Below are positions 38,177 through 63,070 of a stretch of 64,000 nucleotides of DNA, in pieces. Position 1 is the first letter of the stretch. Each line of letters starts with the position of its first letter. The notes below the pieces were generated by a model. That model had not been told where the DNA came from. It made no database searches and saw only the letters and a program-made list of their open reading frames with translations. The stretch is from Candidatus Nomurabacteria bacterium (GTDB lineage: Bacteria > Patescibacteriota > Minisyncoccia > Phycocordibacterales > UBA918), in assembly GCA_023898585.1 (NCBI GenBank), contig CP060229.1:854587-918586 (forward strand), read 5' to 3'. A program made the position numbers and the translations under genes.

Positions 38177-38287
38177 TAAATCGTTATATATTCATAGTCA
38201 TAAACTGCTCCCCACGATAACCCGAATATTAGAACACCAGGTGTCATTCCTAGCTAGGTGGTTATTTCGCCCCTTGCAACTTTTTTG

Positions 38288-46836: not shown

Positions 46837-47406
46837 CTATTCATTATTTTGTGGGACAGCTAAAGCTTTATCTAAATATTTATGCATTTCGGCTGGTGTC
46901 AATTCTCCGTGTTGGTGATGTACAATTTCTCCGTTACGGTCATAAAAGAGAGTTTCGGGCATAGTATACCCCCCTATCGATTTGTAGTATTTGTCTGAAG
47001 CGTCTAAAACCAGCAATATTTTCTCTTCCGCATTTATGAATTTAAGAAAACTTTGAGCCGTAGTTCCTGGTTCTGCCCGGTTTATACCGATTACCTTAAC
47101 ACCCTCGTTTTTATATTTTTCGTACAATTCCGTTAACTCTTTCATCTCACTTACACATGCCGGACACCAGCTAGCCCATGAATTGACAATCAAAACTTCA
47201 CCCACAAAATCAGACAAAATGACTAGATTACCGTTCAAATCTGTGTAAGTAGCAAGCGGGTCGTTCTCTAATGATTGCTGAGCTGGACTTACTTCTTCGG
47301 TCGCCTCATTGTTCTTTTTTACAACTGTCCACGTGTAAAAAACAACACTGATCGTTACCAGCGCTATAGTCGTGATCGTTAGAACGTTGTCTTTGCTTAA
47401 CTGCAC
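46837..47406 (-). CDS. TlpA/ResA-like thiol-disulfide oxidoreductase (membrane-anchored thioredoxin fold)
   Basis: 189 aa; N-terminal TM; WCPAC active site (VNSWASWCPACVSEMKEL). Confidence 0.7.
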   Translation of the reverse strand: MQLSKDNVLTITTIALVTISVVFYTWTVVKKNNEATEEVSPAQQSLENDPLATYTDLNGNLVILSDFVGEVLIVNSWASWCPACVSEMKELTELYEKYKNEGVKVIGINRAEPGTTAQSFLKFINAEEKILLVLDASDKYYKSIGGYTMPETLFYDRNGEIVHHQHGELTPAEMHKYLDKALAVPQNNE

Positions 47407-47415
47407 AAAAAAATT

Positions 47416-47922
47416 TTAACCTTTTATGAACAACTCAAATTCGTCCGGTGATTCACCTTCGCTGGCAGGAATTAAATTCAGTTCAATATTTCTTCCCATG
47501 AAAAGGGCAGAAAATGTAGCACTGTCTGATGCGCTTGCTTCCACTTTAAAGCGTTGCGCTGTTACAACCTGTACGCAAGTGTCCGAGTTGTTGATTACGT
47601 CGAAATTGATAACCACTCTCTCCGGGTAGGATTCTTGAATCGTTGCTTTTGCTTCTAAGAGGTCACAAGGAGTTGGAAAATTTATCTCACCAACCAAAGT
47701 ATGGACACCATCAATAAAGTAGTGCTTGGCATCAACGCGAGTAATATCAGGGTATTTGTTTGAATCTTCGATTTTTTCAATCGGGGTCACATCGACTGGT
47801 GCTTCTTGCTGTATTTCTCCCTTTTTCAAGTGTGCATATATAAACATCCCAACTACCAAAAGAGCAAATAGTGTAACCACTAAAATAATTGATTTTTGAC
47901 TCATAAGTATTGTATTAGCCAT
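47416..47922 (-). CDS. Hypothetical membrane-anchored protein
   Basis: 168 aa; N-terminal TM (IILVVTLFALLVVGMFIYAHL) and a beta-rich ectodomain. Confidence 0.4.
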   Translation of the reverse strand: MANTILMSQKSIILVVTLFALLVVGMFIYAHLKKGEIQQEAPVDVTPIEKIEDSNKYPDITRVDAKHYFIDGVHTLVGEINFPTPCDLLEAKATIQESYPERVVINFDVINNSDTCVQVVTAQRFKVEASASDSATFSALFMGRNIELNLIPASEGESPDEFELFIKG

Positions 47923-47939: not shown

Positions 47940-49607
47940 TTATTGTACAATATTTACGATATCTTTGCCTACATAAATTGATATTTGAGCTTTGGATTCG
48001 GACAGTCCGCTATACGATGACAACAAGGCGCCTTCCAAGATATTACTTAGAGTCAGAGCTTGATCTTCGAGGCCTGGTTCGAAAACGATTATGGTATTGT
48101 TCTCCTTAGTTTCCAAATCGTTAGACATTGACACTATTTCATAACCCATATTTTCAAGATAGATACGTAGTGAGGCGGCAAGGCCATTGATGCCACTGCG
48201 GTTTACGATTTTTATTTGCGGAAGTTCAGGATTTGTAGCTACTTTTTCTTTTTCGCCCTGTACGAGTTTTTGGTAAGCTGTATCTTCCGAAGTTATCTTT
48301 ACCCCCTCACCTACCCCTTCAAAAGTGACTTCATATGGTCGCTCCGGTGTGGATGCAGATTTTACGTACCAAACAACAGCAGAGATAAATAAAATTGCCC
48401 CAAGCAAAGCTAGGAAGAAAAATTTGTAATTTGAGACGAAGCCGGCCACAGTTTTTAAACGATCTGTGTTTGTGGTTGTGTGTTGTAGTCGACCCCTCAA
48501 ATCTAACATGCCGGCTTCAATCGGGGCCACCACCGACAGTCTGGCCTTTTGATTATTCGAAATCATTTTACCGCTAAACTGCTGACTGGAATTAAGACCA
48601 GCCAGGTTTAGCATTTTTCTTATGTAGAGTTTAACAGCCCAGGTAAATAAATAAGCAAAGCCGAGCAGAACCAATATTACCGCGCCCATTATTTTCCAAG
48701 GTATTACCCAAAATGCAGTTTCACTGTTAACAAACTGTCTTTCCTTATCTCCGTAACCGATGGTGGCTATGGCTGTATATCTACCAATGTCTGCCATAGA
48801 CCACTTTCCAGTCCAAGTGAAAGTAAACATCCTAATGCTTTCCGGAAGCACGTTACCAAACATGGTTGAGCGGTTGATAGGGATAACTCCGCGCTCTTGA
48901 CCCCACATGTTAAGTATTTTTATATCCCCTTGTGGCTGAATATGGACATTGCCTTTGTTTTCAAAACGCAGTTCAAAAGTTGCTTCCGGTTTTTCTAAGA
49001 TGGCTGATGTGGTGCGAAATGATCTTATATTGCCAGATTCGACTACGTCGCCGGTAACACGCAAAAAGACCAGAGAGGTTACAATCTGTGACGTTTTTAC
49101 CTCAGGAACTCCGGTTTCATTTGCTGGAGGTTTTGTTCCAATCAATACAGCCGCGAAGTGACCTCCAGGCGAGGCGTCCTCAGGGACTTTGATAGTAAAA
49201 TCAAGTTTATGAGTCTGTTCAGGCGGAATAATAATTTCACTTTCCGGAATACTTATCCATTCAGCGATTGTTTGACCTTTGCTTTCTTCTTCTATTATAG
49301 GGACGAATTTACCCTGCCCATCTTCACCTTGTGGAGCAAAGTTGACAGCATTGGCAAAAATAGTAATTGGGTATGAGTTTGAGTTCACTACACGAATTGA
49401 GCTACTCCATTCCTGTCCCGGGTTGGCTGACATTTCGAATAAGGTCGGAGAAACTGTGAGCGATAAAGCACTTTGAGCAAACGTTATGGCCGGCAAAAGC
49501 GACATTAAGAAAATACCTGAAAACAAATATAGGTGCGCTTTATTGGGTTTTGTTTTTGAGATCGATATCATGTTCCTTGGGATTTTGTGTATGACCTTCA
49601 CGGACAT
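47940..49607 (-). CDS. DUF916-like cell-surface protein with internal TM pair and C-terminal LytR_C-like domain
   Basis: 555 aa; signal peptide; N-domain SLTVSPTLFEMSANPGQEWSSSIRVVNSNSYPITIFANAVNF (DUF916-like pattern SP....E....PGQ....I.V.N.S); two TM helices; C-terminal PQIKIVNRSGINGLAASLRIYLENMGYEIV... resembles LytR_C. Confidence 0.45.
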   Translation of the reverse strand: MSVKVIHKIPRNMISISKTKPNKAHLYLFSGIFLMSLLPAITFAQSALSLTVSPTLFEMSANPGQEWSSSIRVVNSNSYPITIFANAVNFAPQGEDGQGKFVPIIEEESKGQTIAEWISIPESEIIIPPEQTHKLDFTIKVPEDASPGGHFAAVLIGTKPPANETGVPEVKTSQIVTSLVFLRVTGDVVESGNIRSFRTTSAILEKPEATFELRFENKGNVHIQPQGDIKILNMWGQERGVIPINRSTMFGNVLPESIRMFTFTWTGKWSMADIGRYTAIATIGYGDKERQFVNSETAFWVIPWKIMGAVILVLLGFAYLFTWAVKLYIRKMLNLAGLNSSQQFSGKMISNNQKARLSVVAPIEAGMLDLRGRLQHTTTNTDRLKTVAGFVSNYKFFFLALLGAILFISAVVWYVKSASTPERPYEVTFEGVGEGVKITSEDTAYQKLVQGEKEKVATNPELPQIKIVNRSGINGLAASLRIYLENMGYEIVSMSNDLETKENNTIIVFEPGLEDQALTLSNILEGALLSSYSGLSESKAQISIYVGKDIVNIVQ

Positions 49608-50553
49608 ACATTAAGACTTCTTCACCGTCCTCATCATTGTAATTGTCTCGCGAAAATGTTCTTCTAAGCAATAACGTAACCAGTATTACCACGATTAAGA
49701 TACCGCCAAATATCGTTACCAGCAAATGTATCGGCATCATGTAAAAAAAAGTTGTGTCGTGCAACGACGCCCCCATGTTCTTTCCGTATTGTAATGATAC
49801 ATTGGCTTTGAATCGACCCAACTTGTCATCTATCGGCACTTCGCTGGTTAGAGTAACTGTTTCGCCCGGTTCGATCACTTTAGCTTCGCTGTTTACTTGA
49901 ACTGAGCCGATTTCTGAGCCTCTAGAATCATAAAAAATAACTTCACCACTCGGAGCAGACGGTATGTCCCCTAAGTTCTCTACCACTATACTAATTTTCT
50001 TTTTGTCATCGTCTGTGATGAATCTATCCACCAAAAACCCAGCTATCTTCATGCTGTCTGCTCGTTGATCAGCAACTGTTATTTTTACAACAACACCATC
50101 AGCTTCGCCTTTCATAGCAATATCTTCCGCGATGTCTCGATTTTTTGCCGGTACAAAACCGATAAACGCGTGGTACTCCCCAGGTTTAGCGAGTGGGTTG
50201 ATTCTGAAGGTCACCGGTATCTCCTTTTTGTCTCCCGGCAGAATTTCGATTCTGCCTCTTGTTACTTCTATCCAGCTGGTAATTGTATTGGTTCTGTCTG
50301 TCATGACCGGAGTAACAAATTCCTTAATTTCACCTTTTGTGTCCACGGAAATTTCGTTAACCGTGGCGTAGACAACATATTTTGTGAATTTGCTTTCGTT
50401 AGTCAACAAAACCGTCTCTTCGATGATGTCTCGCGGTCCGGCTACTTTATCCATCAAAAAAGGTCGGACTGAGTACTCGGACGCCGAGGAAAATGCCGGC
50501 GGGATAAAAATGGTCAGCAAGAATAAAAGTTTTATAGCAAAATGTCTTTTCAC
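49540..50553 (-). CDS. DUF916-like cell-surface protein with C-terminal TM anchor
   Basis: 337 aa; signal peptide; YSVRPFLMDKVAGPRDIIEETVLLTNESKFTKYVVYATVNEISVDTKGEIKEF (DUF916-like); a C-terminal TM (LLVTIFGGILIVVILVTLLL) and an acidic cytoplasmic tail, the same topology as Gram-positive CscA-type proteins. Confidence 0.45.
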   Translation of the reverse strand: MKRHFAIKLLFLLTIFIPPAFSSASEYSVRPFLMDKVAGPRDIIEETVLLTNESKFTKYVVYATVNEISVDTKGEIKEFVTPVMTDRTNTITSWIEVTRGRIEILPGDKKEIPVTFRINPLAKPGEYHAFIGFVPAKNRDIAEDIAMKGEADGVVVKITVADQRADSMKIAGFLVDRFITDDDKKKISIVVENLGDIPSAPSGEVIFYDSRGSEIGSVQVNSEAKVIEPGETVTLTSEVPIDDKLGRFKANVSLQYGKNMGASLHDTTFFYMMPIHLLVTIFGGILIVVILVTLLLRRTFSRDNYNDEDGEEVLMYVREGHTQNPKEHDIDLKNKTQ

Positions 50554-50569: not shown

Positions 50570-53500
50570 TTAAAATACCGGTACCGCTACATAGGTTATT
50601 GTTGTAGTGTAGTCACCAGCCGGCTGAAGCTCTCTGGCTTTGATTCTGTATATGATGTTTTCTACGTCGACTGAGGCTATGGAACTGTACATTATTTCAT
50701 CCAATGAAGTACTGAGAGAAGCGTACGAATCAAGTGGAGCAAACCTGGCCGAGCCACCTTCGAGTGTAGCGTCGGTGGTGTGGTAGCCGGAACAACTAAT
50801 CGCACCTCCTGTGCATCCAGTAGACCAACCGACCGGTGATGCGTTTGTGCCGGTTATCGGTATGATTTGGTTTCCATAGGAATCAAGTAGTTGCTGATCC
50901 ACATACTTAAAGACCTGATAACCTTCGATCGCGTTAGTATCGACAGTAATTTGCTGTGCCACTTCAACATCGGTATCAAGAGGCAGTGACCCGAAATCGA
51001 CAGAAGTTGCCGTCGTGGTAGCGTCTGTCGTTATTCCTGCTATCGAAGTGTTGGCGTCGACACCATCGATGGTAAAAGTAAGAGAGGCACTTTCTCCAGC
51101 CAGGCTGGGGTTTGAAGTACTCGCGAAGACCACTTCGTTATTAGCAAGATCATACAGTCTGAAGTGATAAACCCTGCCGTAATTACGTTCCACATTGGTG
51201 TACTTAAGAGCAAACTCGTATTCCGTCTTATCTCCTCCATTATGTGTGAAGCCGTTGTAGTAATAAGAACTTTCATTATGAGTGCCACATCCGGCCCCGA
51301 CACTTGCCACGCAACTATCAGAATCGGAAAGTACCGCCGTTGTAATTACTTCATTGTCAACTCCTCCACCATCTTCATAACACCAAACTGAACTGGCCAC
51401 ACACGAAGATGTGGCGACAACATCTTGAGCATCACTGAAATCAGCCTGTTCAGCAAACTGTATTTTGAATCGAGCATTCACTTGGGTCAAGTTCTTTATC
51501 TCGTCCAAAGTGACTCTCAACTTAACCGAGTCGTCTTTTAAAACATTGGTTGGAGCTATGTTCTCCGGTGCTAGATCAACGGTTGGTGTTTCGTTTGTCT
51601 CATCGCCGTACCAACGCCAGGAAGTGATGACCGGTGTGTAACCTTCTGTCCTTATTTCAGGGTAATAAAGATAACCATCGAGTGGAGTGTCGTCAGACTT
51701 AATCATGCGAAAACAGTAAGTGGTTCTTTGTGCGGCTCCGTTTTGCTCAATTAACCAATCGTATTCAACATCTTCACCATCATAAACCGGATACTGATTG
51801 GCTAACGACGGGTTGTTTTCGGTGTAGCGCCCGGCACGATCTGATATTGAAATTAGCAAATCGCCTCCGGTTGGCGGATTGCCCGAAAGTGAAACACCGT
51901 CTGTGATTCCTGGCGCATCGTATCCTCTCCAAATCGCACCACTTCCAACTGAACCGACATCAGTCCATGAGACAACTGCCGAGCAAGTTGTGCTTCTAAC
52001 AGCGTATTGCAATTTTGTCGTCACCAGACCAGCGGGTAAAGTAGCATTACTTACTTTCAAACTCATTCTTATGCGGATTCTGTCACCATCAGCCAGTGGT
52101 GCATCAAGCGCCCCAATGGAAGTATTCTCTCCAAGATTGTCAATTCCCGGTGGCCATGGATCAGTCGGTTTCAAAGCGTCGTTATCCACATAAAAACGAT
52201 AGTAATTTTGTCGCACTGCGAGGTCTGCGGCTGGCCATTGAACAACCTCGGTTCGGTAAGCTAATACTTGACCGGTGTCACTACGCCACAATTCATAGGT
52301 GCTGGTCGACATTATAGTAGCTCCGGCTATCATTCTTGGATAATTATTTCCCGTTCCGGTAACGGACGTAGTCAAAAATATGGATGCGTTATTGGTTGCA
52401 TTGAGAGGCGTCGGGATGTTAACCGAGATACTAAGTGGCTCTGAACCGCCGGTTGTGTTTCCATTACTTCTTTGTACGAGCATTTCTCCGGTACTGGTCT
52501 GGGTGTTTTCGATAATCCAGGCTACAGAAACGTGATTGGAGGTAAGTAGAGCTTGCGGTTCCAAAAGAAATGACACAGCGCCAATACTCGATAGCCATAC
52601 TTCATGACCGAAGTCGGCCAAGCCAAGACTACTGGCGTATCGTTTTTGCGAATGAATGAAAGTGCGAGCTAGGCTATTAACGGCGGTTATGTTTTCAGTC
52701 TCCGTCACTCCGACCGCTGAATAAGAATGCTCAACTCTCTGCACTTTCCAATTTAGTCCCACGAATTCAACTACAGCGTAACTCACGTAACCATCATTAG
52801 CTCCGGTGTCATTACGAGTAAAGACCGGTTCATTTGTTGAAGATGACCAAGAAGCGGTCGACTGATGCCCGTAGCCTTCAGATCGGTTACCGCCGGTGTG
52901 TTGTTGTCCTGTAATAAAGACAACAATGTCGCTGTCATCAACTACGGTTGAAACTGCGGTACCTGTCCCTATAGTATCCGCCACACCATAATTTATAAGA
53001 CTTTGACTTCTAACGAAAATTTCGTTATCTCCACCCGGTGGACCAATATATTCAACAATCTCCCAAGCTACATAAGTATTATTTATAGAGTCACTGTCTC
53101 TCGCAATCGTGAAACTCGTTTCTATATTCCAAGGGTTAGAAATATAAGCGGCATAGTCGTCGGTGTTTTGGTTCCCTCCATTAGAGTCTTTACCAGCACC
53201 TGTGTAATGTGAATTCGTGATCCTAACAAAGGCACTCGTTGAGGCACTCGGTGCGACATAATCTGTACCGGCTGTTAATGTGACACCAGAGCCACTCACT
53301 ATATTGACTCCCCGCTGAATTTTAAAATCTCTTCTTGCTTCTATCGACACTTCAGCGTACTGGTCGTACTGCAAGAGAGGATCACCATTTTGAGTTGCTC
53401 TAAAACAAAAAGTAGTTTCGTAAGGCGTGTCGTTTGTAGTTGTAATGGCATACTCAAGATCAACGTACTGAGTCTGCGTTAAGGTGGTGGTAGCTGAAAA

Positions 53501-56500
53501 TGATTCAGTATCTCGAACGCCACCGTTTGAACCTAAGAAGGTTTTTCCACCCGGGTTGCTTACTCCACCGTTTGCCACAGCTATGTCAGTCGTGGTTTCA
53601 CCGTTGGTGAGATTGGGAGAATCGTACATATCCCAGGAAATTCCTCCACCGTCTGCATCGCTCCAAACCGCAATCGCTTCGCAAGTGGTAACTTTAATAC
53701 CATATTCGAGGCCGTATTTGTGAGGAATTGAGCTGGTTGAGCCCTCGTTCGAAAGACCCAGCCTCAATCGAATTGAGCTGTTTTTACCAAAATCTAGCAA
53801 AGGGGTGTCTTCCGACCCTCCGGTAGCTGAAGTGGCCCCAGTCTCGTTTCCGTCGTCGTTTCGCCAGTGATAATGTATTTGCGTAACAATTCCACCGGAG
53901 AGCGTGGTTGAGCTAGTTATGTCGAGAGCGGTTGATGGAGCGACTGAACCTCCGTCTGTGACCAAAACATCGGACGATCCTGAATTGATGATAATGTTAA
54001 GAGTTTCACCATTGTTAGCTGTGTTAGTAACATCAAGGACTGGATATACGCACATCGCCTGGGTAGTTGTGATGCCAACCGAGCCGGTAAAAGTGGCAGT
54101 TCCGTCAGGACCACTAAAAGAGGAGAAAGCACTTCCGAATTGCGAGTCAGATATGGAAAAAGTTTCGCTGGCACAATCGTATGGAGAGCTGGTATCAAGA
54201 TCGTAGTAAAGTCTGATATTTTCCACTCCACTTGTGCCGTCAACAGTGCCGTTCTCGGTAATAGTTATACTTGTTACATTTCGTGATGAATTGTTTTCTT
54301 TTATAACAAAAGCTCCACCAACATGAAAATCGGCTGTCGGTATATCGACCGTGGCGTACTGCGTGCTAGTGGCACTTACTCGTACATCAGCAGCGATCGT
54401 AGCCTTGGGGTAATTGGTATATGCTGGCAACTCTTCGCCATTGTTTGTTAGTCGAAAGCAATAGGTATTACCTTCGGTAGCTGAGGTGGAAGCGATTATT
54501 GAAAACTCCACTTCTGTCCAGTTAGTAGGTAAAAATGTCAGTGGACCAAGTGTGGAAGAAGTATCACGTAGTCCACCATTGGGGGTCAACAAAACAGTAT
54601 TCTCATTTGTCACACCACCGATACCAACACTAATGTCCGTCGAGTTCGACCCGTCTGTTAAAAATGTCGAATCATACATGTTCCAATCGTCATCAGTGGC
54701 TCCGACATCTGTCCAGCCGGTCGCAACATCACAAGTTGCGGTGTTAAGCGCGTACTCAAGTCTTAATGTGGTTGGAAAAGATGAAGTTGAACCTTCATTG
54801 GAAATACCGAGTCGCAATCTCCTTGGTGTGTCTTGCTGGAGCGCAGTCAATGAAGTGTCTTCTATCCCACCAGTCCTAGATGTGGCACCGGTTTCGTTAC
54901 CATTATCATTTCGCCAATGGAAGTGAGTTTGAGTAAGATCTGAATCGAGTATATTTGTTGTTCCGGACAAAACCTGCACCGTATCAGGAACGGCAGTCAC
55001 CGACCCTGATACAAGAACATCTGTTGCCGGATTGGAAATTTCAATTTCCATATTACTTCCGTCAACCGCCGATTTGAGAACGTCCAACACAACATAAACG
55101 CACATTGACTGTGTTGGCGAAATACTGACGGAGCCAGTGAAAGCTGAAGTTCCGTCTGCACCAGAAAAACCGTTGGCATCAGTACTACCAAATTGTGACT
55201 CAGAGCCGGAGTATGATTCGCTCGCGCAGTCGTAGGGAGAACTGGTGTCAAGGTCGTACTTCAACTTTATATTATTCAAGCCACTTGAAGCATCTACCGT
55301 ACCGTTTTCTGTAATCTGAATATTGGTGACGTTTCGTGCTTCAGTAAACTCTCGAATTACGAATTGCCCACCCACATACTGATCGGTGGTACTTGCTCTC
55401 ATTGTCGTTGCTTGTGTGCCGGAAGCAGACACAACGGTTTTAGGGGAGAGGTCAGCAACTGTATCGCCGAACACATCATCAACGTTAGCTTCAAACCATG
55501 ACAAAAATAATCTTTGAATTGACGAGTAATTAAATGAAACCCCGTACATATCACCGGAAACAGTATTGACAGGACCTTGTTCAGCGCCCCAACTGGTCAT
55601 GGCGGAGGTCGACGTTGCCCAATACACGTTAGCTGTAGATGCACTGTTAATGGTGGTACGGGCAGAATAAGCAACGTAGACGGTCTCTGTATTTTCATCA
55701 ATTGTAAGGGAAACGGATGTTAAACCACGGGTATCGTTGGTAATGATGTCGGGTAGATTTGACCAAGAACCACCTGAATATTTCGCTACTCTAATATCGT
55801 GGTCAGCGGTAGTGAAGGTGTTAGCATCAGCGATATAAGCAAGGAAAACATCTCCGGAAACTGGGCTCCTTACCGCCGACATTTGGAAATCGTAGGTTGA
55901 GCTTTCAACGGCATTCGCATCAATAGTAAGCCAGTTTGTGTCCCAACTTGTGCCATTCCATACCTTGGAACGCATGTCGTTGGCACTAATATCACGATTG
56001 ATGAGAAGTATGTTTCCACTGTCTAGAGGTAGGAGCATAGTAGCATCTTCATCAGCGTCCATGAATGTGCCATCGCCAACTTCAACCCAGTTCGTTGCTG
56101 TGCCACAGGTAGCAGAACAAGAAACAACAAAGCGATCGCCATTGTCAGACACTGATATATAAAGGATCCCGTTTGTACCTTTTGTTAGAGAATGATTAGC
56201 CGTAGCAGCACTTAGTGACATTGGACTTTGGCTCAGTACAGCACTTACAGGACTTGAGCCGAGCAACAAAGTATCACTAGACACATCAAGACGATTGTAC
56301 CAAATATCATCGTCACCCGAATCCATCGTGGCGATGTGTATGTAGGATCCAGTATCACCCGGTGTCCACTGATCGTACCAAACAACAATTGCTTGACAGT
56401 CGGTCTGTGAATCCACAAGTACCTGTGTCCCCCATGTCGCCCCACCGTCTGTAGTTTTCTTGTAGACACAAGTGCCGTTTGTTCCAGTTCCTCCGACACC

Positions 56501-56707
56501 ATCTCGATAAAATTTATATCCAACTTGATCCGATATAAACACTGAGGACGGTTGAACTTGGTTGTGAGAAGGGCCGTTTGTGCTCGGAGTGTCATCAATA
56601 ACTACTTCTGCTGCTAAAGCATAAGGAAATAGTGGCCAACTCAAAAATTTGTCTGCGCCTGAAAAAACAAAAGTTGAAATAAGTATAAAAGTAATTAACT
56701 TTTGCAT
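50570..56707 (-). CDS. Giant secreted surface protein (~2045 aa): BNR/sialidase-like N-domain, four repeated ~230-aa modules, conserved C-terminal domain
   Basis: Probable start is the Met of MQKLITFILISTFVFSG (signal peptide; GGTGG-like RBS upstream). BNR/Asp-box TTDGGATWGTQ. Repeated modules signalled by FHWRNDNGNETGATS / HYHWRNDDGNETGATS / YYRFYVDNDALKPTD / SWRWYGDETNETPTV, each followed by RLRLG(I/L)SNEG... and ...(T/Y)(Y/F)CFR... Duplicated beta-sandwich segments (YDLDTSSPYDCASE...). C-terminus ...YRIKARELQPAGDYTTTITYVAVPVF. Confidence 0.6.
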   Translation of the reverse strand: MQKLITFILISTFVFSGADKFLSWPLFPYALAAEVVIDDTPSTNGPSHNQVQPSSVFISDQVGYKFYRDGVGGTGTNGTCVYKKTTDGGATWGTQVLVDSQTDCQAIVVWYDQWTPGDTGSYIHIATMDSGDDDIWYNRLDVSSDTLLLGSSPVSAVLSQSPMSLSAATANHSLTKGTNGILYISVSDNGDRFVVSCSATCGTATNWVEVGDGTFMDADEDATMLLPLDSGNILLINRDISANDMRSKVWNGTSWDTNWLTIDANAVESSTYDFQMSAVRSPVSGDVFLAYIADANTFTTADHDIRVAKYSGGSWSNLPDIITNDTRGLTSVSLTIDENTETVYVAYSARTTINSASTANVYWATSTSAMTSWGAEQGPVNTVSGDMYGVSFNYSSIQRLFLSWFEANVDDVFGDTVADLSPKTVVSASGTQATTMRASTTDQYVGGQFVIREFTEARNVTNIQITENGTVDASSGLNNIKLKYDLDTSSPYDCASESYSGSESQFGSTDANGFSGADGTSAFTGSVSISPTQSMCVYVVLDVLKSAVDGSNMEIEISNPATDVLVSGSVTAVPDTVQVLSGTTNILDSDLTQTHFHWRNDNGNETGATSRTGGIEDTSLTALQQDTPRRLRLGISNEGSTSSFPTTLRLEYALNTATCDVATGWTDVGATDDDWNMYDSTFLTDGSNSTDISVGIGGVTNENTVLLTPNGGLRDTSSTLGPLTFLPTNWTEVEFSIIASTSATEGNTYCFRLTNNGEELPAYTNYPKATIAADVRVSATSTQYATVDIPTADFHVGGAFVIKENNSSRNVTSITITENGTVDGTSGVENIRLYYDLDTSSPYDCASETFSISDSQFGSAFSSFSGPDGTATFTGSVGITTTQAMCVYPVLDVTNTANNGETLNIIINSGSSDVLVTDGGSVAPSTALDITSSTTLSGGIVTQIHYHWRNDDGNETGATSATGGSEDTPLLDFGKNSSIRLRLGLSNEGSTSSIPHKYGLEYGIKVTTCEAIAVWSDADGGGISWDMYDSPNLTNGETTTDIAVANGGVSNPGGKTFLGSNGGVRDTESFSATTTLTQTQYVDLEYAITTTNDTPYETTFCFRATQNGDPLLQYDQYAEVSIEARRDFKIQRGVNIVSGSGVTLTAGTDYVAPSASTSAFVRITNSHYTGAGKDSNGGNQNTDDYAAYISNPWNIETSFTIARDSDSINNTYVAWEIVEYIGPPGGDNEIFVRSQSLINYGVADTIGTGTAVSTVVDDSDIVVFITGQQHTGGNRSEGYGHQSTASWSSSTNEPVFTRNDTGANDGYVSYAVVEFVGLNWKVQRVEHSYSAVGVTETENITAVNSLARTFIHSQKRYASSLGLADFGHEVWLSSIGAVSFLLEPQALLTSNHVSVAWIIENTQTSTGEMLVQRSNGNTTGGSEPLSISVNIPTPLNATNNASIFLTTSVTGTGNNYPRMIAGATIMSTSTYELWRSDTGQVLAYRTEVVQWPAADLAVRQNYYRFYVDNDALKPTDPWPPGIDNLGENTSIGALDAPLADGDRIRIRMSLKVSNATLPAGLVTTKLQYAVRSTTCSAVVSWTDVGSVGSGAIWRGYDAPGITDGVSLSGNPPTGGDLLISISDRAGRYTENNPSLANQYPVYDGEDVEYDWLIEQNGAAQRTTYCFRMIKSDDTPLDGYLYYPEIRTEGYTPVITSWRWYGDETNETPTVDLAPENIAPTNVLKDDSVKLRVTLDEIKNLTQVNARFKIQFAEQADFSDAQDVVATSSCVASSVWCYEDGGGVDNEVITTAVLSDSDSCVASVGAGCGTHNESSYYYNGFTHNGGDKTEYEFALKYTNVERNYGRVYHFRLYDLANNEVVFASTSNPSLAGESASLTFTIDGVDANTSIAGITTDATTTATSVDFGSLPLDTDVEVAQQITVDTNAIEGYQVFKYVDQQLLDSYGNQIIPITGTNASPVGWSTGCTGGAISCSGYHTTDATLEGGSARFAPLDSYASLSTSLDEIMYSSIASVDVENIIYRIKARELQPAGDYTTTITYVAVPVF

Positions 56708-56837
56708 ACGCAAAAAACCACCTTTTTTGTGTGCCCAAAAAAACATGATATGTGGTTATATTTTACTCTATAAACTACAAAAATGTGGTTCTGGTAGTGG
56801 AAAATGTTACTTCATGACACCAATCGTTATTCCTTTA

Positions 56838-58685
56838 CTAGTCGCCCTGGTTGATTGCTGTACTAGAAGAACCAGATTCGTTTGTTGGCTGAATAATCAA
56901 GTCGTAATCAGTCAGTTCCAAGAACTGTTGATCTTCAGTGGTTTTCAGCGATGTACTAGATAATTGCATATCATCCGGTTCATCGGCGGTAGAACTGCCG
57001 TTAGCTGAAGCCTGCTTGAGATTTAGAGTTTCAGCTTCATCAATCTCTCCGACACCCGAGGTACTAGAGCCAGTAACATTCTTTGTTCCATCGATATTGA
57101 ACTCACCTTTACTTGAAGATTTGTTTTGAATAAGAGCTCTTGTCTCACCTGTCCCATCAGCATCTGGAATCTCAACCGGATTATCAGCCGGTCGAGAAGC
57201 GATGGGCGCGGAGATTCCCGTGTTAGGATCAAATCCTTGCGTTACAACGTCACCATTGTCGTACATAGTGTCGTATACAAGCACAAAGCGTGGATTTGCT
57301 ATAACACCCCCTTCGTAGCCATTAATAGTTAAAGTCTCACCACTCTTGAGTGAATAAACCTTGGCTTCTTGCTCTTCCAAGCCTAGCACGCTCCAGAGAA
57401 CATAGCCGTCATCAATCGCCGGAGCAACATCTTGAGTCAGATTATCTGTCAATTGGTCAGTGTATGTGCCATCAAACATCATTATCTCCCAATCATTACC
57501 GTCCCAAGCTTGCCACACCACACCTTCTTTTGAGACTTTTGGCTCCATGTTGTTGGTGCGTGAAAATGTCAGCTGGTCTTCTTTTTCTTCTTTTATGTCG
57601 TATAAGATAATTTGGTACCTGCCATCTATCTGTCTTTGCCACACTACTTGCATTGATTCGGCGTTGTAGTGAGGAGAAGTATCTTCGTACTCATTGTCAG
57701 TTAATTGTTTTACTTCACCCATCGACGTACGCAAGAAAATTTCCATATTTGAATTGGCGCCCAAATCAGCGTACACCACAGCGTTCAAATCTATTCCGGT
57801 TTCCGTATTAACACTACAGTGGTAAGTTCCATCACCAATGGCAACACATGACTGACGGTTGAATTGATAATAATTATCTTCAGTAACTAGACTCTGCGCC
57901 TCAACCTGATTAATTTGTTGAGGAGCAAGATCGTCGATAATTCCAGTCAGGTCAGTATCTTGTGTTTCTGTACTATCGGCACCTGTCGAAGAAGCAGAGA
58001 AAGAAACATGGTCATCCAGTGATGAATCAGCACCAACGGTTGTTGTCATCAGGTCTGAAGAACTCGCCGATGAACTATCATTATCACTATACGAATTTGA
58101 GCTAGTACTCGATGATTCTGTTTCACCCGTATCACTATTACTCTCCGAACCAGTTTGAGTAGTTGTTGACACGCTGGTTTGAAGGAGCAACGATTTGTTA
58201 CTACTACTAGCTACTTTACTTGAAGTGGCAAAAGTTTGTTTAGTAGAAGAAGCAGTTATATTGCTAGATTGAATATCAGCTTGGACATTCGTGTTTACAA
58301 CATTGTTATTAATGGAAGTTGACGAATTTTTAGTGTTTTTTAAGAGCGAGTCTTCGATTGTTGTTGCTGGCTCATTATCGATATCGTCATCTAACGTGGA
58401 TGCTTCAATTGATTCATCTGAATCTCTTATTGAATCATTTATGGTAACAGTTTCTGCAGATTTTGATGAGGCTTGTAAAGCAACCGATTCAGCAACTGGT
58501 GAATTTTTTTCAACATCAACAGTAATAGCATCTTCACTCGCAAAGGCTTTATGAATTGGTTGAATCAAAAACGAAATAAAGAGAGTTAAAACCAAAACAA
58601 CCGAAAAGCCACTGTTAAAGGTAACAGCATAAATAAATGCGGCGGACCGCTTATTATTCTGATATAGCTTTGGTTTGTACCTCAT
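56838..58685 (-). CDS. Membrane-anchored Ser/Thr-rich protein with TolB-like beta-propeller domain
   Basis: 615 aa; N-terminal TM; ~200-aa low-complexity Ser/Thr/Asp tract; C-terminal repeated W/D-rich blades (QVVWQRQIDGRYQIILYD...VVWQAWDGNDWEIMMFDG...YVLWSV). Confidence 0.5.
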   Translation of the reverse strand: MRYKPKLYQNNKRSAAFIYAVTFNSGFSVVLVLTLFISFLIQPIHKAFASEDAITVDVEKNSPVAESVALQASSKSAETVTINDSIRDSDESIEASTLDDDIDNEPATTIEDSLLKNTKNSSTSINNNVVNTNVQADIQSSNITASSTKQTFATSSKVASSSNKSLLLQTSVSTTTQTGSESNSDTGETESSSTSSNSYSDNDSSSASSSDLMTTTVGADSSLDDHVSFSASSTGADSTETQDTDLTGIIDDLAPQQINQVEAQSLVTEDNYYQFNRQSCVAIGDGTYHCSVNTETGIDLNAVVYADLGANSNMEIFLRTSMGEVKQLTDNEYEDTSPHYNAESMQVVWQRQIDGRYQIILYDIKEEKEDQLTFSRTNNMEPKVSKEGVVWQAWDGNDWEIMMFDGTYTDQLTDNLTQDVAPAIDDGYVLWSVLGLEEQEAKVYSLKSGETLTINGYEGGVIANPRFVLVYDTMYDNGDVVTQGFDPNTGISAPIASRPADNPVEIPDADGTGETRALIQNKSSSKGEFNIDGTKNVTGSSTSGVGEIDEAETLNLKQASANGSSTADEPDDMQLSSTSLKTTEDQQFLELTDYDLIIQPTNESGSSSTAINQGD

Positions 58686-58801
58686 TTGGGCTACATAATT
58701 TTGATTTTGCGTGGGAAGTTAGAATATCCCCACATCATAATAATACCAACAGTGCTGTGCCACTGTTAGTATTATTATCAACAGATATTTTGTCTTTTAA
58801 A

Positions 58802-59548
58802 TCATTTGAAGAATAGGTCTGCCAAAATAATTGAAAAGTCTTTAAACGTCATTTTTCCGTCTCCATTAAAGTCGTAAATTTTATCCTTTGTTCCCCATGC
58901 TGACATAAACGCACTAACATCTTTCAGTGTAACTTCGCCATCGCCGTCAACGTCTGTTAAAATACTAACTTTGACATCTAAACCGATACTGGTTGGGTCT
59001 GTATTCTGGTCATATATGTATAAATTTACATTTGAACTCAAAGCTTCAGCAACTTTTACCTTGGTGCCGGCCCCATCACCAGCCAACAAAACCACATCGG
59101 ATGTTTTTACACTACTTTGCCCAGTTTGTTTAGCCTGAAGTTTTATTGTGGCGATCTTATGTTCACCTTTAAAACCTTTCTTGTATGTCCCACCTTGCAA
59201 TATTACGTGATCCGGCATTATTACTGGCTCTTTTGTCCAAATTGTTAAAACAGACTGTCCCTTATCAACCCCCAGGACTTTCACAGCAGACTCATTGAAG
59301 CGTAGTGTAATATCTATGGCATTAACCGGAACATGTGCGTACGCAAAAACATCTAAAGAAAAATTTTCACCTGCTTTGATAGCTGTCTTGGATGCTTCCA
59401 GTCTCACATATGAAACATCAGTCGAAGTAACTACCGCCGCGCCAAGCAAAGCAATTAATGTTAGTGAAGCGGAGAACATGTAGCGGACAGTTCCCTTTCG
59501 TTTTAGAGGGTTAAAGAATACTTTAACGAAACGAAGGAAAAAATCCAT
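58802..59548 (-). CDS. Cohesin-dockerin protein
   Basis: 248 aa; signal anchor; cohesin-like domain (ENFSLDVFAYAHVPVNAIDITLRFNESAVKVLGV); C-terminal type-I dockerin duplicate Ca-binding segments DVDGDGEVTLKDVSAFMSAWG and DFNGDGKMTFKDFSIILADLF. Confidence 0.65.
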   Translation of the reverse strand: MDFFLRFVKVFFNPLKRKGTVRYMFSASLTLIALLGAAVVTSTDVSYVRLEASKTAIKAGENFSLDVFAYAHVPVNAIDITLRFNESAVKVLGVDKGQSVLTIWTKEPVIMPDHVILQGGTYKKGFKGEHKIATIKLQAKQTGQSSVKTSDVVLLAGDGAGTKVKVAEALSSNVNLYIYDQNTDPTSIGLDVKVSILTDVDGDGEVTLKDVSAFMSAWGTKDKIYDFNGDGKMTFKDFSIILADLFFK

Positions 59549-59556
59549 AATTAGGG

Positions 59557-60243
59557 CTAGATGGAAATTAAATCAGAGCGAATGCTTGAAGTTTTTGTAG
59601 CAGTAACAGTGAGTGCCTCTTGGACGGAGCGAACTTCGACTAATATATCCGTGATCTCAGATGAATCTACCGCACTTCCTGCCAGCAGTGTGGAAATGAT
59701 TTGATCCTGAAGTCTTACCAAAGTAGCAAAAAGATCACTTTGCTTTTGTTCCTCATCGGCTAAACTTTGCCACAAAGAAAGTTTATACTCTTCGGAAACG
59801 CTTTCACCAAGGACAAGTTCGAGCTGATTCACATAAGACTCGAACACTTCTATTTCTCTCGCAAGTTTTGTCACCATGACCGACTTAGTGTCGGAACGAA
59901 ATTTACCACACCTGCCAAAAAGCCTTTCCAGCTCTGTAAGTTCAGCGTTATTGAGTCTGTTATTAAGCTGATTAAGCAAACTATCAAACTGCGATCTTTC
60001 AGCCACTGAACAATCGATAATGATCGATTCTGTGATTTGATCAGCACCATTTCTAGCAGTAGTCTCAGCTATGGCAACTAGCAGGGCTTGCTGATTGGCG
60101 ATAAGGAGTCTAGTGCCGAGCTCGATATCCTTAAAATGGTTGTTGATGATTACGGTAACCAATGAATACATTACGCCTATTCCAGCCACAACCACGATTA
60201 CGTTCTTTATATTTAACCAGTTAAATTTACTTGTTTTGTTCAT
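59557..60243 (-). CDS. Hypothetical membrane-anchored helical protein
   Basis: 228 aa; N-terminal TM (VIVVVAGIGVMYSLVTVII) and a predicted alpha-helical ectodomain. Confidence 0.4.
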   Translation of the reverse strand: MNKTSKFNWLNIKNVIVVVAGIGVMYSLVTVIINNHFKDIELGTRLLIANQQALLVAIAETTARNGADQITESIIIDCSVAERSQFDSLLNQLNNRLNNAELTELERLFGRCGKFRSDTKSVMVTKLAREIEVFESYVNQLELVLGESVSEEYKLSLWQSLADEEQKQSDLFATLVRLQDQIISTLLAGSAVDSSEITDILVEVRSVQEALTVTATKTSSIRSDLISI

Positions 60244-60249
60244 AAAAGT

Positions 60250-62025: not shown

Positions 62026-63070
62026 TAGTGTTTTCTAAAATATCGGCTCTTTCCACACTATTTTTACGCCCACGATTTCTTTTCAGCCAGTAAAATACAA
62101 CCAGTGCTGTTAGCACTACGACTATCAAAGTTGCAAAACTAATAGCTATCGTAAGCACTTGAGCGCGTGAAATAGTCCTCATCGACTCATCCGGTATAAG
62201 GGTGGCTATATATTCATTACCCGCCTTATCAACCGCTTTAACACGAATAATACTATTGAGACTTTGGTCTTTTAACACATAAGGACTACGTTCAATAACC
62301 CAGGGGGCATCCGCTCTTCCCCACTGAAACGAACCTAGTTGAGCAAGCGGTTCTTCCATCACCTCGTAGTGGTCTATTCCTGTCTGTTTGTCTGTAGTAT
62401 TGAAAACTATGAAATGATCGCCTGAAAAAGCTTTGTTATCCTTTTGGACAGAAATACTAAATTCTTCGGGTGCTATCTTATCTGCCGTTATTTGGTTCTT
62501 CCAATCATTAACTTGCGATTGACCGGCTTGTGGTTTTAGCTCAACCGTAGCTCCGTAAGTCGAGAGATCTGCCTTTGTTCCCAATCCATCATTTAAATAG
62601 GCTGTAGTTTCGTCAGAAAAAGATAGTTTTGCTAAAGCTTCCTCGGAGGAGCCTCCCCCAACTGAAAAACCGGGTGACCTGAACACAATTTCAGCAACTA
62701 CATTAGTTAACATTGGATCACCAACTATTCGTCCGCAATAACCGTTGGGTACTCCTCCGGCAAAAGTCACTGTCCTGTCTTCTTTATTTATTGTTGGGGT
62801 TTCCACCCACACACTGAATATTGATGAACCGAGTGAGACATCAACCGGAGCTATGTTGTCAGTATATGTTAAAACACCATCGATAGCATTAACGCACTCA
62901 TTATTTGCCTCATCGGTGTCTAGCCTGACAGCAACTTTGATTGAGTCACCCCGATACAATGTGCTACTGGCCGGATCGATATACAAAGACGCACCGAGAG
63001 TTACGTTCGGTAACAAGACAAACGTCACTAACATACATACAAAAAGTCGCCGAACACGAATTCTATTCAT
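61997..63070 (-). CDS. Type-I membrane protein with N-terminal cohesin domain (paralog)
   Basis: Probable start is the Met of MNRIRVRRLFVCMLVTFVLLPNVTLGA (the ORF track extends to 63121). Cohesin-like SLYIDPASSTLYRGDSIKVAVRLDTDE...LTYTDNIAPVDVSLGSSIFSVWVETPT...TVTFAGGVPNGY; C-terminal TM (VLTIAISFATLIVVVLTALVVFYWL) and a short tail. Confidence 0.5.
   Translation of the reverse strand: MNRIRVRRLFVCMLVTFVLLPNVTLGASLYIDPASSTLYRGDSIKVAVRLDTDEANNECVNAIDGVLTYTDNIAPVDVSLGSSIFSVWVETPTINKEDRTVTFAGGVPNGYCGRIVGDPMLTNVVAEIVFRSPGFSVGGGSSEEALAKLSFSDETTAYLNDGLGTKADLSTYGATVELKPQAGQSQVNDWKNQITADKIAPEEFSISVQKDNKAFSGDHFIVFNTTDKQTGIDHYEVMEEPLAQLGSFQWGRADAPWVIERSPYVLKDQSLNSIIRVKAVDKAGNEYIATLIPDESMRTISRAQVLTIAISFATLIVVVLTALVVFYWLKRNRGRKNSVERADILENTNGSDYDEPN

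Follow-up and report, generated by a model that had tools for sequence, protein, structure and literature searches.

The closest described counterparts of the locus analysed here are the WxL/Csc gene clusters of Gram-positive bacteria. PMC10599100, PMC9772566 and PMC1534035 place such clusters in Lactobacillales, Listeria and Bacillus, and portray WxLIP as a protein with a DUF916 domain, a DUF3324 domain and a transmembrane segment. In the layout given by PMC10599100 and PMC9772566, a cluster comprises a WxLIP together with one small and one large WxL protein, the WxL domain of the latter being always C-terminal; Hassan and Williamson define a WxL cluster by a minimum of one WxLIP together with two WxL proteins within four genes.

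For Patescibacteria other than Saccharibacteria, the attachment literature that we searched covers mainly type IV pili. Here we describe a giant modular protein encoded in a 64,000-nt stretch of a Candidatus Nomurabacteria genome (GenBank GCA_023898585.1, contig CP060229.1, positions 854,587-918,586 of the forward strand; hereafter the window). This cell-surface protein of Paceibacteria is ancient and has been strongly conserved; the layout of its gene cluster resembles that of Gram-positive WxL surface-protein clusters.

Results

A secreted 2045-residue protein

A single minus-strand ORF occupies positions 50570..56746 of the window and encodes 2058 amino acids if the first ATG is used. Initiation at the second Met, at 56707, yields 2045 amino acids, in agreement with NCBI call P0001 and with the ORF (50570-56707) proposed in an earlier note made from the DNA letters alone. 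A start at the upstream ATG (56746) would lengthen the N-terminus by 13 residues. The order of domains is signal peptide, N-terminal domain, S1-M1-S2-M2, a central region of ~370 amino acids, M3-M4, and a C-terminal domain of 174 amino acids:

56609..56707, minus strand: signal peptide region, residues 1-33, MQKLITFILISTFVF...ALA, then AE (cleavage site judged by eye)
55436..56587, minus strand: N-terminal head domain, residues ~41-424, a putative BNR/sialidase-like beta-propeller
54941..55432, minus strand: S1 beta-sandwich, residues ~426-589 (AlphaFold2 unit model, HMM cross-matches)
54380..54940, minus strand: M1 module, residues ~590-776, first strand with FHWRNDNGNE (AlphaFold2 unit model, HMM matches)
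53891..54379, minus strand: S2 beta-sandwich, residues ~777-939, 53% identical to S1 (HMM cross-matches)
53327..53890, minus strand: M2 module, residues ~940-1127, YHWRNDDGNE, 44% identical to M1 (HMM matches)
52220..53326, minus strand: central all-beta region, residues ~1128-1496, of no known family (AlphaFold2 C-half model)
51638..52219, minus strand: M3 module, residues ~1497-1690, YYRFYVDNDA (M1/M2 HMM matches)
51095..51637, minus strand: M4 module, residues ~1691-1871, SWRWYGDETN (M2/M3 HMM matches)
50573..51094, minus strand: C-terminal domain of 174 amino acids, the proposed anchor, ending ...AGDYTTTITYVAVPVF-COOH (profile family, common to an upstream protein of ~390 amino acids)

Residues 4-22 form the sole strongly hydrophobic 19-residue window of the protein (Kyte-Doolittle 1.65), and the hydrophobicity scan revealed no membrane segment other than this signal-type one. 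There is no C-terminal LPxTG/hydrophobic stretch of the kind that makes a sortase signal: the sequence ends ...VAVPVF, and LPxTG-like motifs are exclusively internal (NPPTG at 1610, IPITG at 1949). The earlier view of a giant, modular surface-type protein is thus upheld, in that the product is secreted, all-beta and equipped with one N-terminal signal-type segment. Searches of the giant protein against Pfam (empty at E<=1), NCBIfam and PDB sequences returned no match, and the repeated sandwich modules, whose family the earlier note had left unplaced, are covered by no curated family.

Repeated S and M modules

The repeat unit is S+M, of ~351 amino acids (S ~165, M ~185), S preceding M1 and M2 only. 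Four modules had been announced, each opening with a quoted motif; the motifs lie at residues 596, 946, 1502 and 1696, and the count of four holds for M, while the announced size of ~230 amino acids fits neither M nor the repeat unit. In chunked self-BLAST, residues 426-773 align with 777-1124 at E values down to 5e-43. The S1 HMM finds S2 at 2e-65 (S1/S2 cross-matches span 1e-65 to 1e-72), M3 is detected by the M1/M2 profile HMMs (E 1e-11 to 1e-16) and M4 by those of M2/M3 (E 9e-4 to 3e-5). A duplicated sandwich segment, YDLDTSSPYDCASE, occurs twice as claimed, at residues 484 and 835; its reported identity of ~85% is approached locally, the best 40-residue window having 32/40 identical residues (80%), but not overall (S1/S2 53%, M1/M2 44%). 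Invariant cysteine pairs lie within the individual domains, as in S1 (494/536), M1 (659/750, within the TC..A and CFR motifs) and M3 (1575/1665), and M4 holds four invariant cysteines.

Predicted fold

AlphaFold2 models together cover residues 420-2045. Both the S/M unit (pLDDT 94.6) and the C-terminal half (including the central region; pLDDT 90.4) were modelled as all-beta; the pTM of the latter, 0.52, makes its domain orientation uncertain. Residues 420-2045 are accordingly predicted to form a chain of all-beta domains, S1-M1-S2-M2-central-M3-M4-Cterm. By Foldseek, the S/M model matched integrin thigh/calf, PrgB Ig-like and transglutaminase barrel domains with probability 1.0, at TM-scores of only 0.2-0.4 and 6-13% identity, and the matches of both models were solely surface proteins built of several sandwiches (integrin alpha legs, PrgB, antigen I/II, alpha-2-macroglobulin). 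In these models, S and M therefore resemble Ig-like beta-sandwiches, as a generic match. A LamG/jelly-roll fold had been suggested earlier as a candidate, with HHpred or Foldseek as the check; Foldseek returned Ig-like sandwich chains instead, LamG-type structures are absent from the top 50 hits of either model, and the giant protein has no Pfam LamG match.

The N-terminal head domain

Sequence features suggest that residues ~41-424 form a BNR/sialidase-like propeller. PF13088 (BNR_2), with a gathering cut-off of 31.4 bits, scores 33.7 bits on P0026 and 31.7 bits on P0035, two relatives of greater length; the stretch it matches sits inside the domain that an HMM of residues 40-425 matches at ~1e-155, and the head-domain alignment contains an internal repeat of ~60 residues (E 3.6e-5). 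PF13088 gave no hit at E<=1 on the window protein itself, and the Asp-box (S-x-D-x-G-x-T-W), rather than recurring once per blade, was located in a single canonical copy (TTDGGATW, residue 85). Sequence searches with the window protein and with the family profile both returned no solved sialidase. The head domain is tandemly duplicated in 2440-aa (prop-prop) variants and replaced in orphan paralogues, which keep the trunk; in some paralogues a central-type region serves as N-terminal head, and the same region occurs in proteins with the order central-M-M-Cterm.

A family of C-terminal domains

A profile search with the C-terminal domain recovered 1,948 cluster representatives (clusters at 50% identity). 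In 148 of the 150 members listed (protein lengths 106-5226 amino acids) the match reaches to within 5 residues of the C-terminus, and in 108 of the 150 an M module stands immediately before it. The domain thus defines a large family and is nearly always terminal, and M-(M)-Cterm is a cassette re-used beneath many different N-terminal passenger regions, including fn3, LamG_3, DUF2341 or CUB. WxL proteins share the trait of a common C-terminal domain in both small and large secreted proteins. At the sequence level, the Pfam WxL model PF13731 produced zero hits at E<=10 on 24 C-terminal domains; hhalign gave E 0.023 with 12 WxL domains from Firmicutes and E 0.067 with WxL from Actinobacteria, unrelated controls lying at 0.057-0.9; and Trp-x-Leu motifs are absent from the domain, the collinear positions reading G-Y-Q-V and T-Y-V.

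The gene cluster

Genes encoding a smaller protein with the same C-terminal domain, two DUF916/WxLIP-type proteins and several further co-directional products surround the giant gene:

63228..64000, minus strand: g3, 3' part of a small protein of ~390 amino acids with the C-terminal domain, ending ...DDYTATLTYVATPVF; runs past the window end
56838..63121, minus strand: g4-g8, co-directional syntenic genes (Pfam and synteny)
49540..50553, minus strand: g10, 337 amino acids, DUF916/WxLIP-like, with signal peptide, a region resembling two-domain DUF916 proteins and, at the C-terminus, a predicted membrane helix
47940..49607, minus strand: g11, 555 amino acids, WxLIP_PGBD, two hydrophobic segments and LytR_C (Pfam, hhalign)
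46837..47922, minus strand: g12 (168 amino acids, N-terminal membrane helix) and a thioredoxin-fold redoxin (Pfam Redoxin 8.5e-22)

The small gene g3, complete at positions 2308-3480 of L001, is located six genes upstream of the giant gene, and its product matches the giant's C-terminus (BLASTP E 4e-14; HMM E 3e-24). Of the genes between them, g4 and g5 code for cohesin-like membrane proteins, g6 for a membrane protein of 228 amino acids, g7 for a protein with cohesin and dockerin domains, and g8 for a Ser/Thr/Asp-rich protein of 615 amino acids. Dockerin_1 exceeds the Pfam cut-off in g7 and in the L001 orthologue of g2, an upstream gene beyond the window end, while the cohesin-like N-terminal domains of g4, g5 and g7 score below cut-off.

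Two DUF916/WxLIP-type membrane proteins are encoded directly downstream of the giant gene, g10 starting 16 nt past its stop codon and g11 following. The two are paralogous (hhalign E 3e-50), and hydrophobic helices are visible in both. g11 passes the cut-off of PF06030 (29.8 bits vs 27.3), scores 37.7 bits with PF13399 and aligns with DUF916 proteins at 97-98% hhalign probability; g10, which has no direct Pfam hit, aligns with actinobacterial DUF916 proteins at 95-97%. The hhalign alignments of g10/g11 span 233-273 columns of the actinobacterial DUF916 proteins, the equivalent of two domains, and Pfam gave no PF11797 (DUF3324) hit in either.

Synteny of ~13 genes extends across three distant genomes and most of the 83 related loci. 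The order of g4-g8 is the same in CP060227, CP060228 and JBGSSW01 and is found in 56-69 of the 83 loci, g10 is present at 76 of them, and g12 and the redoxin are syntenic in the same three genomes; L004 has an extra DsbA-like gene. We also sampled five unrelated loci (L100-L104) encoding proteins with the C-terminal domain. Large and small proteins with the domain are paired in four of the five, two of which also have WxLIP-like genes: L101 and L102 each encode one large protein (5226 and 4842 amino acids), two small ones and 2-3 g10/g11-like proteins, and thus closely fit the WxL cluster layout with a shared domain that is not proven to be WxL. In L103 and L104 the large and small proteins stand side by side. 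No g10/g11 was seen near L100 or the orphan paralogues.

Conservation and age of the duplication

More than 300 full-length orthologues (48-76% identity) were found, with relatives in at least 157 GTDB species genomes. Among 120 listed relatives, query coverage is near-full except for P0104 (67%), which carries an insertion of ~220 amino acids in M1, and 96 have 2000-2100 amino acids and identities of 48-76%. Past the signal peptide, conservation is even over the whole length (0.46-0.70 per 50-residue block). Comparison of four pairs of genomes gave identities of 76/62/54/51% for the giant protein, vs 53/39/41/34% for the adjacent redoxin, and the giant tops ten compared cluster genes or trails the top by a few points. 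The in-cluster copy has constant architecture in 50 of 83 loci scanned, and an identical protein was recovered on six contigs, the three locations shown stemming from three different samples. Both sequence and architecture are under strong purifying selection. In all 11 orthologues compared, units S1M1 and S2M2 have 42-51% identity to each other, whereas orthologous S+M units average 57%; the duplication is therefore older than the family, and there has been no concerted evolution. The earlier description of the modules as recently duplicated and of the protein as fast-evolving is contradicted by these values and by its slower change than that of neighbouring genes.

Conservation of this strength is unusual for a host-binding adhesin, which counts against such a role, and equally suits a structural one.

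Discussion

On balance, we favour the view that the protein is a Sec-exported, disulfide-stabilised, non-covalently anchored surface fibre conserved across Paceibacteria (Parcubacteria-type Patescibacteria). Its C-terminal domain would be a non-covalent anchor docking on the membrane-anchored, WxLIP-like g10 and g11, by analogy with Firmicutes, where WxL domains have been proposed to dock on WxLIP. The S and M sandwiches may build a stalk of tens of nanometres that carries the BNR-like propeller as a distal ligand-binding head, its ligand probably a glycan, which paralogues would exchange for other heads. Neighbours with cohesin or dockerin domains could mount additional components onto this same platform, and the neighbouring thioredoxin-fold proteins may serve the conserved cysteine pairs. 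A wider reading, to which we give tentative credence, posits an undescribed surface organelle of Patescibacteria, in which the C-terminal domain would act as a novel kind of anchor module, equivalent to WxL in function and either unrelated or diverged beyond recognition, plugging ~2,000 clusters of proteins (up to 5,226 amino acids) onto DUF916-type membrane docks. The propeller-headed giant would then be its sole universally conserved member, which would make it a candidate for a conserved contact of these ultra-small cells with hosts or substrate.

An unlikely but serious alternative is that the protein is no adhesin but a structural component of the envelope, for instance of a surface layer or a wall-spanning scaffold, so that it and its cluster would build a conserved part of the Paceibacteria envelope. 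Its best or near-best rank among ten cluster genes, above the adjacent redoxin, the constancy of the in-cluster copy (50/83 loci), the identical protein from several samples and the LytR_C domain of its partner g11, a domain that takes its name from LytR-type proteins related to the cell envelope, would all suit such a component; against it, exchangeable heads on a constant trunk are a pattern typical of binding proteins, paralogues occur outside the cluster, and there is no hint of lattice formation. We consider it improbable that the small protein (~390 amino acids) is the major subunit of a polymerising fibre with the giant as tip, joined through their shared C-terminal domains with the DUF916-like proteins as chaperone/usher-like factors. 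Small and large proteins do stand side by side in four of five unrelated loci and are paired in the giant's own cluster, and PMC10599100 describes an AlphaFold2-predicted insertion of a DUF916 beta-hairpin into WxL, but our analysis yielded no support for subunit-subunit contacts, and the DUF916-like proteins suit a dock better than a chaperone because a C-terminal helix is predicted to anchor them in the membrane.

That the BNR-type propeller is an active sialidase or glycosidase displayed on a stalk formed by the rest of the protein seems more improbable still. The BNR_2 matches on the homologous domain, a weak GH16 hit in other members of the C-terminal-domain family and the GH43 of actinobacterial WxL proteins point that way, yet the Asp-box is single and neither window protein nor family profile matches a solved sialidase. 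The notion of a fast-evolving host-interaction adhesin with recent module duplication is refuted for this gene, and we give it almost no weight: repeats exist, with a 40-residue S1/S2 patch 80% identical, and some relatives have extra duplications or insertions (prop-prop variants; ~220 amino acids in M1 of P0104), but the duplication is old, conservation uniform, and change slower than in neighbouring genes.

Through this analysis, an anonymous 'hypothetical protein' becomes part of a defined, testable four-part system: a conserved cluster of ~13 genes, a C-terminal domain family marking the cell-surface repertoire of these Patescibacteria, a reusable M-M-Cterm stalk-and-anchor cassette, and DUF916-type proteins as candidate docks. 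The narrower question raised by the earlier note is answered as well, the modules being predicted Ig-like sandwiches and the protein not fast-evolving.

Comparison with known systems

The cluster recalls cellulosomes in its Dockerin_1 domains (g7, g2 orthologue) and the cohesin-like N-terminal domains of g4, g5 and g7; however, the cohesin scores are below cut-off, the cluster lacks glycoside hydrolases, and the giant protein has neither domain. Gram-positive multi-Ig adhesins (PrgB, 8beg, the best TM-score at 0.40; antigen I/II C-terminal domains, 3qe5/6e3f/5dz9) likewise have stalks of tandem Ig-like sandwiches, but these are LPxTG-anchored, whereas the giant protein has no sortase signal and no sequence similarity to them. 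Integrin alpha ectodomains are among the top Foldseek matches of both models and, if the propeller holds, would share the arrangement in which a leg of Ig-like sandwiches (thigh/calf) bears a propeller as its head; at TM-scores of 0.15-0.26 and 7-9% identity this is an architectural match, and we claim no homology.

From WxL/Csc systems this locus differs in that the C-terminal domain here has neither Trp-x-Leu motifs nor a significant WxL profile match, in having a pair of WxLIP paralogues, of which one is fused to LytR_C, with DUF3324 undetected by Pfam, in the cohesin/dockerin proteins of the cluster, where no LPxTG protein was seen, and in the patescibacterial host, whose large protein is 2-4 times longer than described large WxL proteins (500-1000 amino acids). 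WxL/Csc systems share with this locus a large, multi-domain, beta-rich protein free of a sortase signal, a C-terminal domain common to it and a small protein, neighbouring DUF916/WxLIP-type proteins (g11 passing the PF06030 cut-off) with a predicted membrane helix at the C-terminus, and a last strand that is similar by eye (AGDYTTTITYVAVP vs AGEYVSTLTWTLLDAP). The WxL/Csc layout, on record until now for Firmicutes and encountered in this analysis in Actinobacteria, would extend to the candidate phyla radiation.

Repeat architecture of the giant protein

A single long minus-strand ORF runs from window position 50570 to 56746, encoding 2058 amino acids from its first ATG or 2045 from its second Met (56707); its start is ambiguous across 56707-56746, where translation could begin 13 codons before the annotated Met. 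The 2045-aa form, identical to the deposited P0001 (‘hypothetical protein H6782_04715, Candidatus Nomurabacteria bacterium’), is the giant protein described in an earlier note on this DNA from sequence alone (50570-56707), and the motifs quoted there are all found in it:

Giant protein residue 596: FHWRNDNGNE
Giant protein residue 946: YHWRNDDGNE
Giant protein residue 1502: YYRFYVDNDA
Giant protein residue 1696: SWRWYGDETN
Giant protein residues 484 and 835 (two copies): YDLDTSSPYDCASE

Because plain self-BLAST gave the identity match alone, the protein was compared with itself by BLASTing 120-residue chunks against the masked remainder. This pairs residues 426-773 with 777-1124 (47-63% identity, E down to 5e-43), and the second half of this unit recurs more weakly at ~1527-1688 and ~1724-1833. 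Module profile HMMs built from 96 orthologues confirmed four copies of one module (M) and two of another (S): M3 is detected by the M1/M2 HMMs at 1e-11 to 1e-16, M4 by the M2/M3 HMMs at 9e-4 and 3e-5, and S1 and S2 match reciprocally at 1e-65 to 1e-72. Chunked BLAST and HMMs agree, so the internal repeats reported in the earlier note are real. Its count of four modules holds for M, while its size of ~230 aa does not: strand positions in AlphaFold2 models give ~185 aa for M and ~165 aa for S, and the tandem unit is S+M, 351 aa long. The ~85% identity it quoted for the duplicated sandwich segments applies to a short patch only (32/40 in the best 40-residue window); overall, S1 and S2 are 53% identical, and M1 and M2 44%.

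Predicted fold and domain anatomy

The whole giant protein has no Pfam or NCBIfam match at E≤1, and PDB sequences yielded no match to its N-terminal 426 aa or to the full-length family profile (E≤1 in both cases), and nothing at E≤10 to the profile of its C-terminal domain (Cterm, residues 1872-2045). AlphaFold2 models, built with a 69-sequence alignment, comprise two all-beta domains for residues 420-780 (pLDDT 94.6, pTM 0.81), in which M begins with a strand formed by the W-R-N-D motif, and are all-beta throughout for residues 1125-2045 (pLDDT 90.4, pTM 0.52), where M3 and M4 likewise begin at motif strands. Foldseek searches of the PDB with both models returned only chains of Ig-like sandwiches, including integrin alpha thigh/calf legs, PrgB Ig-like domains, transglutaminase C-terminal barrels, antigen I/II C-domains and alpha-2-macroglobulin, with E-values to about 1e-7 but TM-scores of 0.1-0.4 and 6-13% identity. 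The viral BFVD database gave the same kind of generic multi-sandwich match (TM-scores ≤0.4), and neither a particular family nor a phage tail protein stood out among the matches of either model in PDB or BFVD. Since Foldseek returned such chains, the S and M modules are, as modeled, Ig-like sandwiches without a curated family, and the LamG/jelly-roll fold raised as a candidate in the earlier note was rejected.

Invariant cysteines are paired within domains (494/536, 659/750, 845/886, 1009/1101, 1575/1665, four in M4, and 1965/1972) and would form disulfides. The N-terminal export signal is the sole strongly hydrophobic segment, and the protein has no C-terminal LPxTG signal.

The N-terminal domain (the head, residues ~41-424) contains one Asp-box and a ~60-residue internal repeat (E 3.6e-5). 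It is tandemly duplicated in 2440-aa variants, whose homologous domain barely reaches the Pfam BNR_2 cut-off (33.7 and 31.7 bits vs 31.4). A six-bladed BNR-like propeller is thus likely from sequence features; the propeller proposed in the earlier note stands on these indirect lines, the window protein itself having no Pfam match there. The head is doubled (prop-prop) in P0021, P0026 and P0035 (L005 10001-17326), from a subgroup of 2413-2477 aa, and another variant, P0104 (2272 aa), carries a ~220-residue insertion within M1.

Age and conservation

A protein search identified 333 relatives among the candidates scored. The best 120 of these cover 95-100% of the query, except P0104 (67%), at 48-76% identity, and are mostly 2023-2079 aa long, with one subgroup of 2413-2477 aa; named sources are all Patescibacteria (Nomurabacteria, Kaiserbacteria, ‘Patescibacteria group’). 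Scanning one genome per GTDB species with the C-terminal half (921 aa) revealed 157 stretches encoding a relative, the best 80 of which span nearly all of the query at 47-75% identity. Across a 96-sequence alignment, per-50-residue identity to the window protein is 0.46-0.70 all along the sequence beyond the signal peptide. The Paceibacteria-type locus also occurs on many contigs labeled Saccharibacteria, Acidimicrobiales, Syntrophomonadaceae or Azotimanducaceae (L022, L029, L079, L081, L095 and others), probably mislabeled or mis-binned MAG contigs.

Within single proteins, units 1 and 2 share 42-51% identity (11 orthologues from across the family), vs a mean of 57% (minimum 46%) between orthologous units; the duplication is therefore older than the family, rather than recent as the earlier note had it, and no homogenisation of the copies has taken place. 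Its description of the protein as fast-evolving also fails. Rate was gauged as conservation relative to neighboring genes in four genomes, not as dN/dS, because the nearest non-identical relative shares 76% protein identity, a distance at which saturation of synonymous sites is to be expected, and all closer copies are identical (the exact 2045-aa sequence lies on six contigs, from at least three different samples). Across these four genomes, in order of rising distance, the giant protein retains 76, 62, 54 and 51% identity, ranking first among ten compared genes of the cluster or trailing the leader by a few points; the adjacent thioredoxin-fold enzyme retains 53, 39, 41 and 34%.

A C-terminal domain shared by small and large proteins

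A partial ORF at the right end of the window (63228-64000, minus strand) ends ...DDYTATLTYVATPVF, compared with ...GDYTTTITYVAVPVF in the giant protein. The complete protein (~390 aa; L001 2308-3480) is 33% identical to the C-terminal 170 residues of the giant one (E 4e-14) and is matched by the Cterm HMM at E 3e-24. Searched against 1.84 billion cluster representatives, the Cterm profile matched 1,948 proteins at E≤1e-3, 1,044 of them at E≤1e-10, and no curated model exists for either Cterm or the giant-protein family. Host proteins span 106 to 5,226 aa; the match ends ≤5 residues from the C-terminus in 148 of the 150 listed, and at least one M module, detected by our own HMMs, directly precedes Cterm in 108 of them. 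This ‘M-M-Cterm’ cassette recurs beneath very different N-terminal parts, whose Pfam matches, where any, are to fn3, Laminin_G_3, DUF2341 and CUB. Some genomes with an in-cluster copy encode a second giant protein outside the cluster that keeps the trunk (S-M-S-M-central-M-M-Cterm) under another head (L078, L080, L087, L097), and in two loci a second giant gene, with this trunk under a ‘central’-type head, immediately follows the first (L024 13297-19947, L045 13257-19454).

Gene neighborhood

The giant gene belongs to a co-directional cluster of ~13 genes, in the same order in two closed genomes (CP060227, CP060228) and a third MAG; individual members are present in 56-76 of 83 related loci. 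Sixteen nt past its stop codon begins g10 (337 aa), followed by g11 (555 aa); the two products are paralogous (hhalign E 3e-50) and have hydrophobic helices past the DUF916-aligned region. g11 exceeds the Pfam cut-off for WxLIP_PGBD (DUF916), with LytR_C also present, and both proteins match annotated Clavibacter and Streptomyces DUF916 proteins and a Deinococcus relative (probability 95-98%, 233-273 columns). The public 304-aa call for g10 (start region 50454-50553) drops the signal peptide, which a GTG start at 50553 (337 aa) restores, fitting orthologues of 338-344 aa. A thioredoxin-fold redoxin lies downstream, as does a DsbA-like protein in other genomes.

Upstream genes include the following, identified with Pfam:

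Window 58802-59548 (minus strand): protein with cohesin-like domain and Dockerin_1
Window 60250-62025 (minus strand): membrane protein with cohesin-like domain
Window 61997-63121 (minus strand): membrane protein with cohesin-like domain
L001 878-1978: protein with Dockerin_1

Cohesin-like N-terminal domains, with matches below the Pfam cut-off, occur in three cluster proteins, two of them membrane-anchored; Dockerin_1 exceeds its cut-off in two, one also containing DUF4215 and Big_6. The same surface cluster may thus encode a cohesin-dockerin network. The upstream neighbor g8 (56838-58685, minus strand; 615 aa) has an N-terminal membrane helix, ~200 Ser/Thr/Asp-rich low-complexity residues and a C-terminal part with no Pfam match; it is syntenic in 69/83 loci, yet poorly conserved (29-71% identity).

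A promoter and terminator scan of window 46-64 kb stayed at chance level. At 45988-46668 (minus strand) lies the gene for a 226-aa protein with a Pfam match to Autoind_synth (LuxI-type autoinducer synthase; 28.6 bits vs a 24-bit cut-off) and weaker ones to GNAT Acetyltransf_5 and FeeM N-acyl amino acid synthase. Such an acyl-homoserine-lactone or N-acyl-amino-acid synthase-like gene is unusual for a Patescibacterium; it is missing at that place in loci L004-L006, where an AI-2E transporter family gene is found instead. The sole tRNA gene of the 64-kb window is tRNA-Ala(GGC) (38287-38360, minus strand).

Possible modes of action

Given the export signal, fold class, conservation, Cterm family and terminal position, cassette, WxLIP-type neighbors and recurrence of the gene set, we lean towards a secreted, disulfide-braced fibre. 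Its Cterm would dock non-covalently on membrane-anchored g10/g11, the S and M sandwiches would provide a stalk, perhaps tens of nanometres long, the propeller might act as a distal binding head, and cohesin/dockerin neighbors could supply further parts.

The unusual conservation of the giant protein favors a structural component of the envelope, which we nonetheless consider rather unlikely. That the small and large proteins are subunits of a polymerising fibre seems improbable, and a displayed glycosidase somewhat more so. Least credible is the fast-evolving adhesin of the earlier note; the docked fibre remains our preferred reading.

Comparison with WxL clusters

According to two published accounts, Firmicute WxL clusters encode one small and one large type of WxL protein, the WxL domain of the large type always being C-terminal, behind a row of beta-rich domains, and a WxLIP (DUF916+DUF3324+TM helix) whose proposed role is to retain WxL at the wall (PMC10599100, PMC9772566). 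The window cluster has the same cast: small and large proteins sharing a domain, with the small one encoded six genes upstream of the large, and WxLIP-type proteins. At two unrelated loci (L101, L102), different large proteins (5,226 or 4,842 aa) each accompany two small Cterm proteins and two or three g10/g11-like genes; large and small Cterm proteins are adjacent in L103 and L104, and a large one stands alone in L100.

Pfam WxL is absent in 24/24 Cterm members. A CPR Cterm alignment of 241 sequences was compared by hhalign with 12 Firmicute and four actinobacterial WxL domains, the sets being drawn from plasmid records, giving E 0.023 (with the last strand alone aligned confidently) and 0.067, respectively, vs 0.057-0.9 for unrelated control pairs. 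Cterm matches neither set better than controls, and homology to WxL is not supported; the actinobacterial set itself is clearly WxL (E 1.5e-9 vs the Firmicute set). A greedy alignment places Cterm F-G, G-Y-Q-V and terminal A-G-D-Y...T-Y-V opposite WxL F-G, G-W-x-L and A-G-x-Y...T-W-x-L, a strand correspondence that is suggestive only.

Plasmids of Deinococcus, Streptomyces and Clavibacter likewise encode DUF916-like proteins (L007, a Deinococcus psychrotolerans plasmid, 6892-12638; L008; L009). In the actinobacteria, the neighboring gene product (a GH43-Ricin protein in Streptomyces, a 208-aa ‘hypothetical’ protein in Clavibacter) carries a divergent but genuine WxL domain, and WxL clusters therefore reach beyond Firmicutes; the Deinococcus neighbors gave nothing significant.

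No published description of this cluster in Patescibacteria was found in an incomplete coverage of the literature. The window system resembles WxL clusters in layout and includes a true WxLIP-family member, whereas its Cterm is not recognised as a WxL domain by profile or motif; we regard the locus as a Patescibacteria surface cluster of WxL/Csc-like type whose proteins share another, proposed anchor domain.
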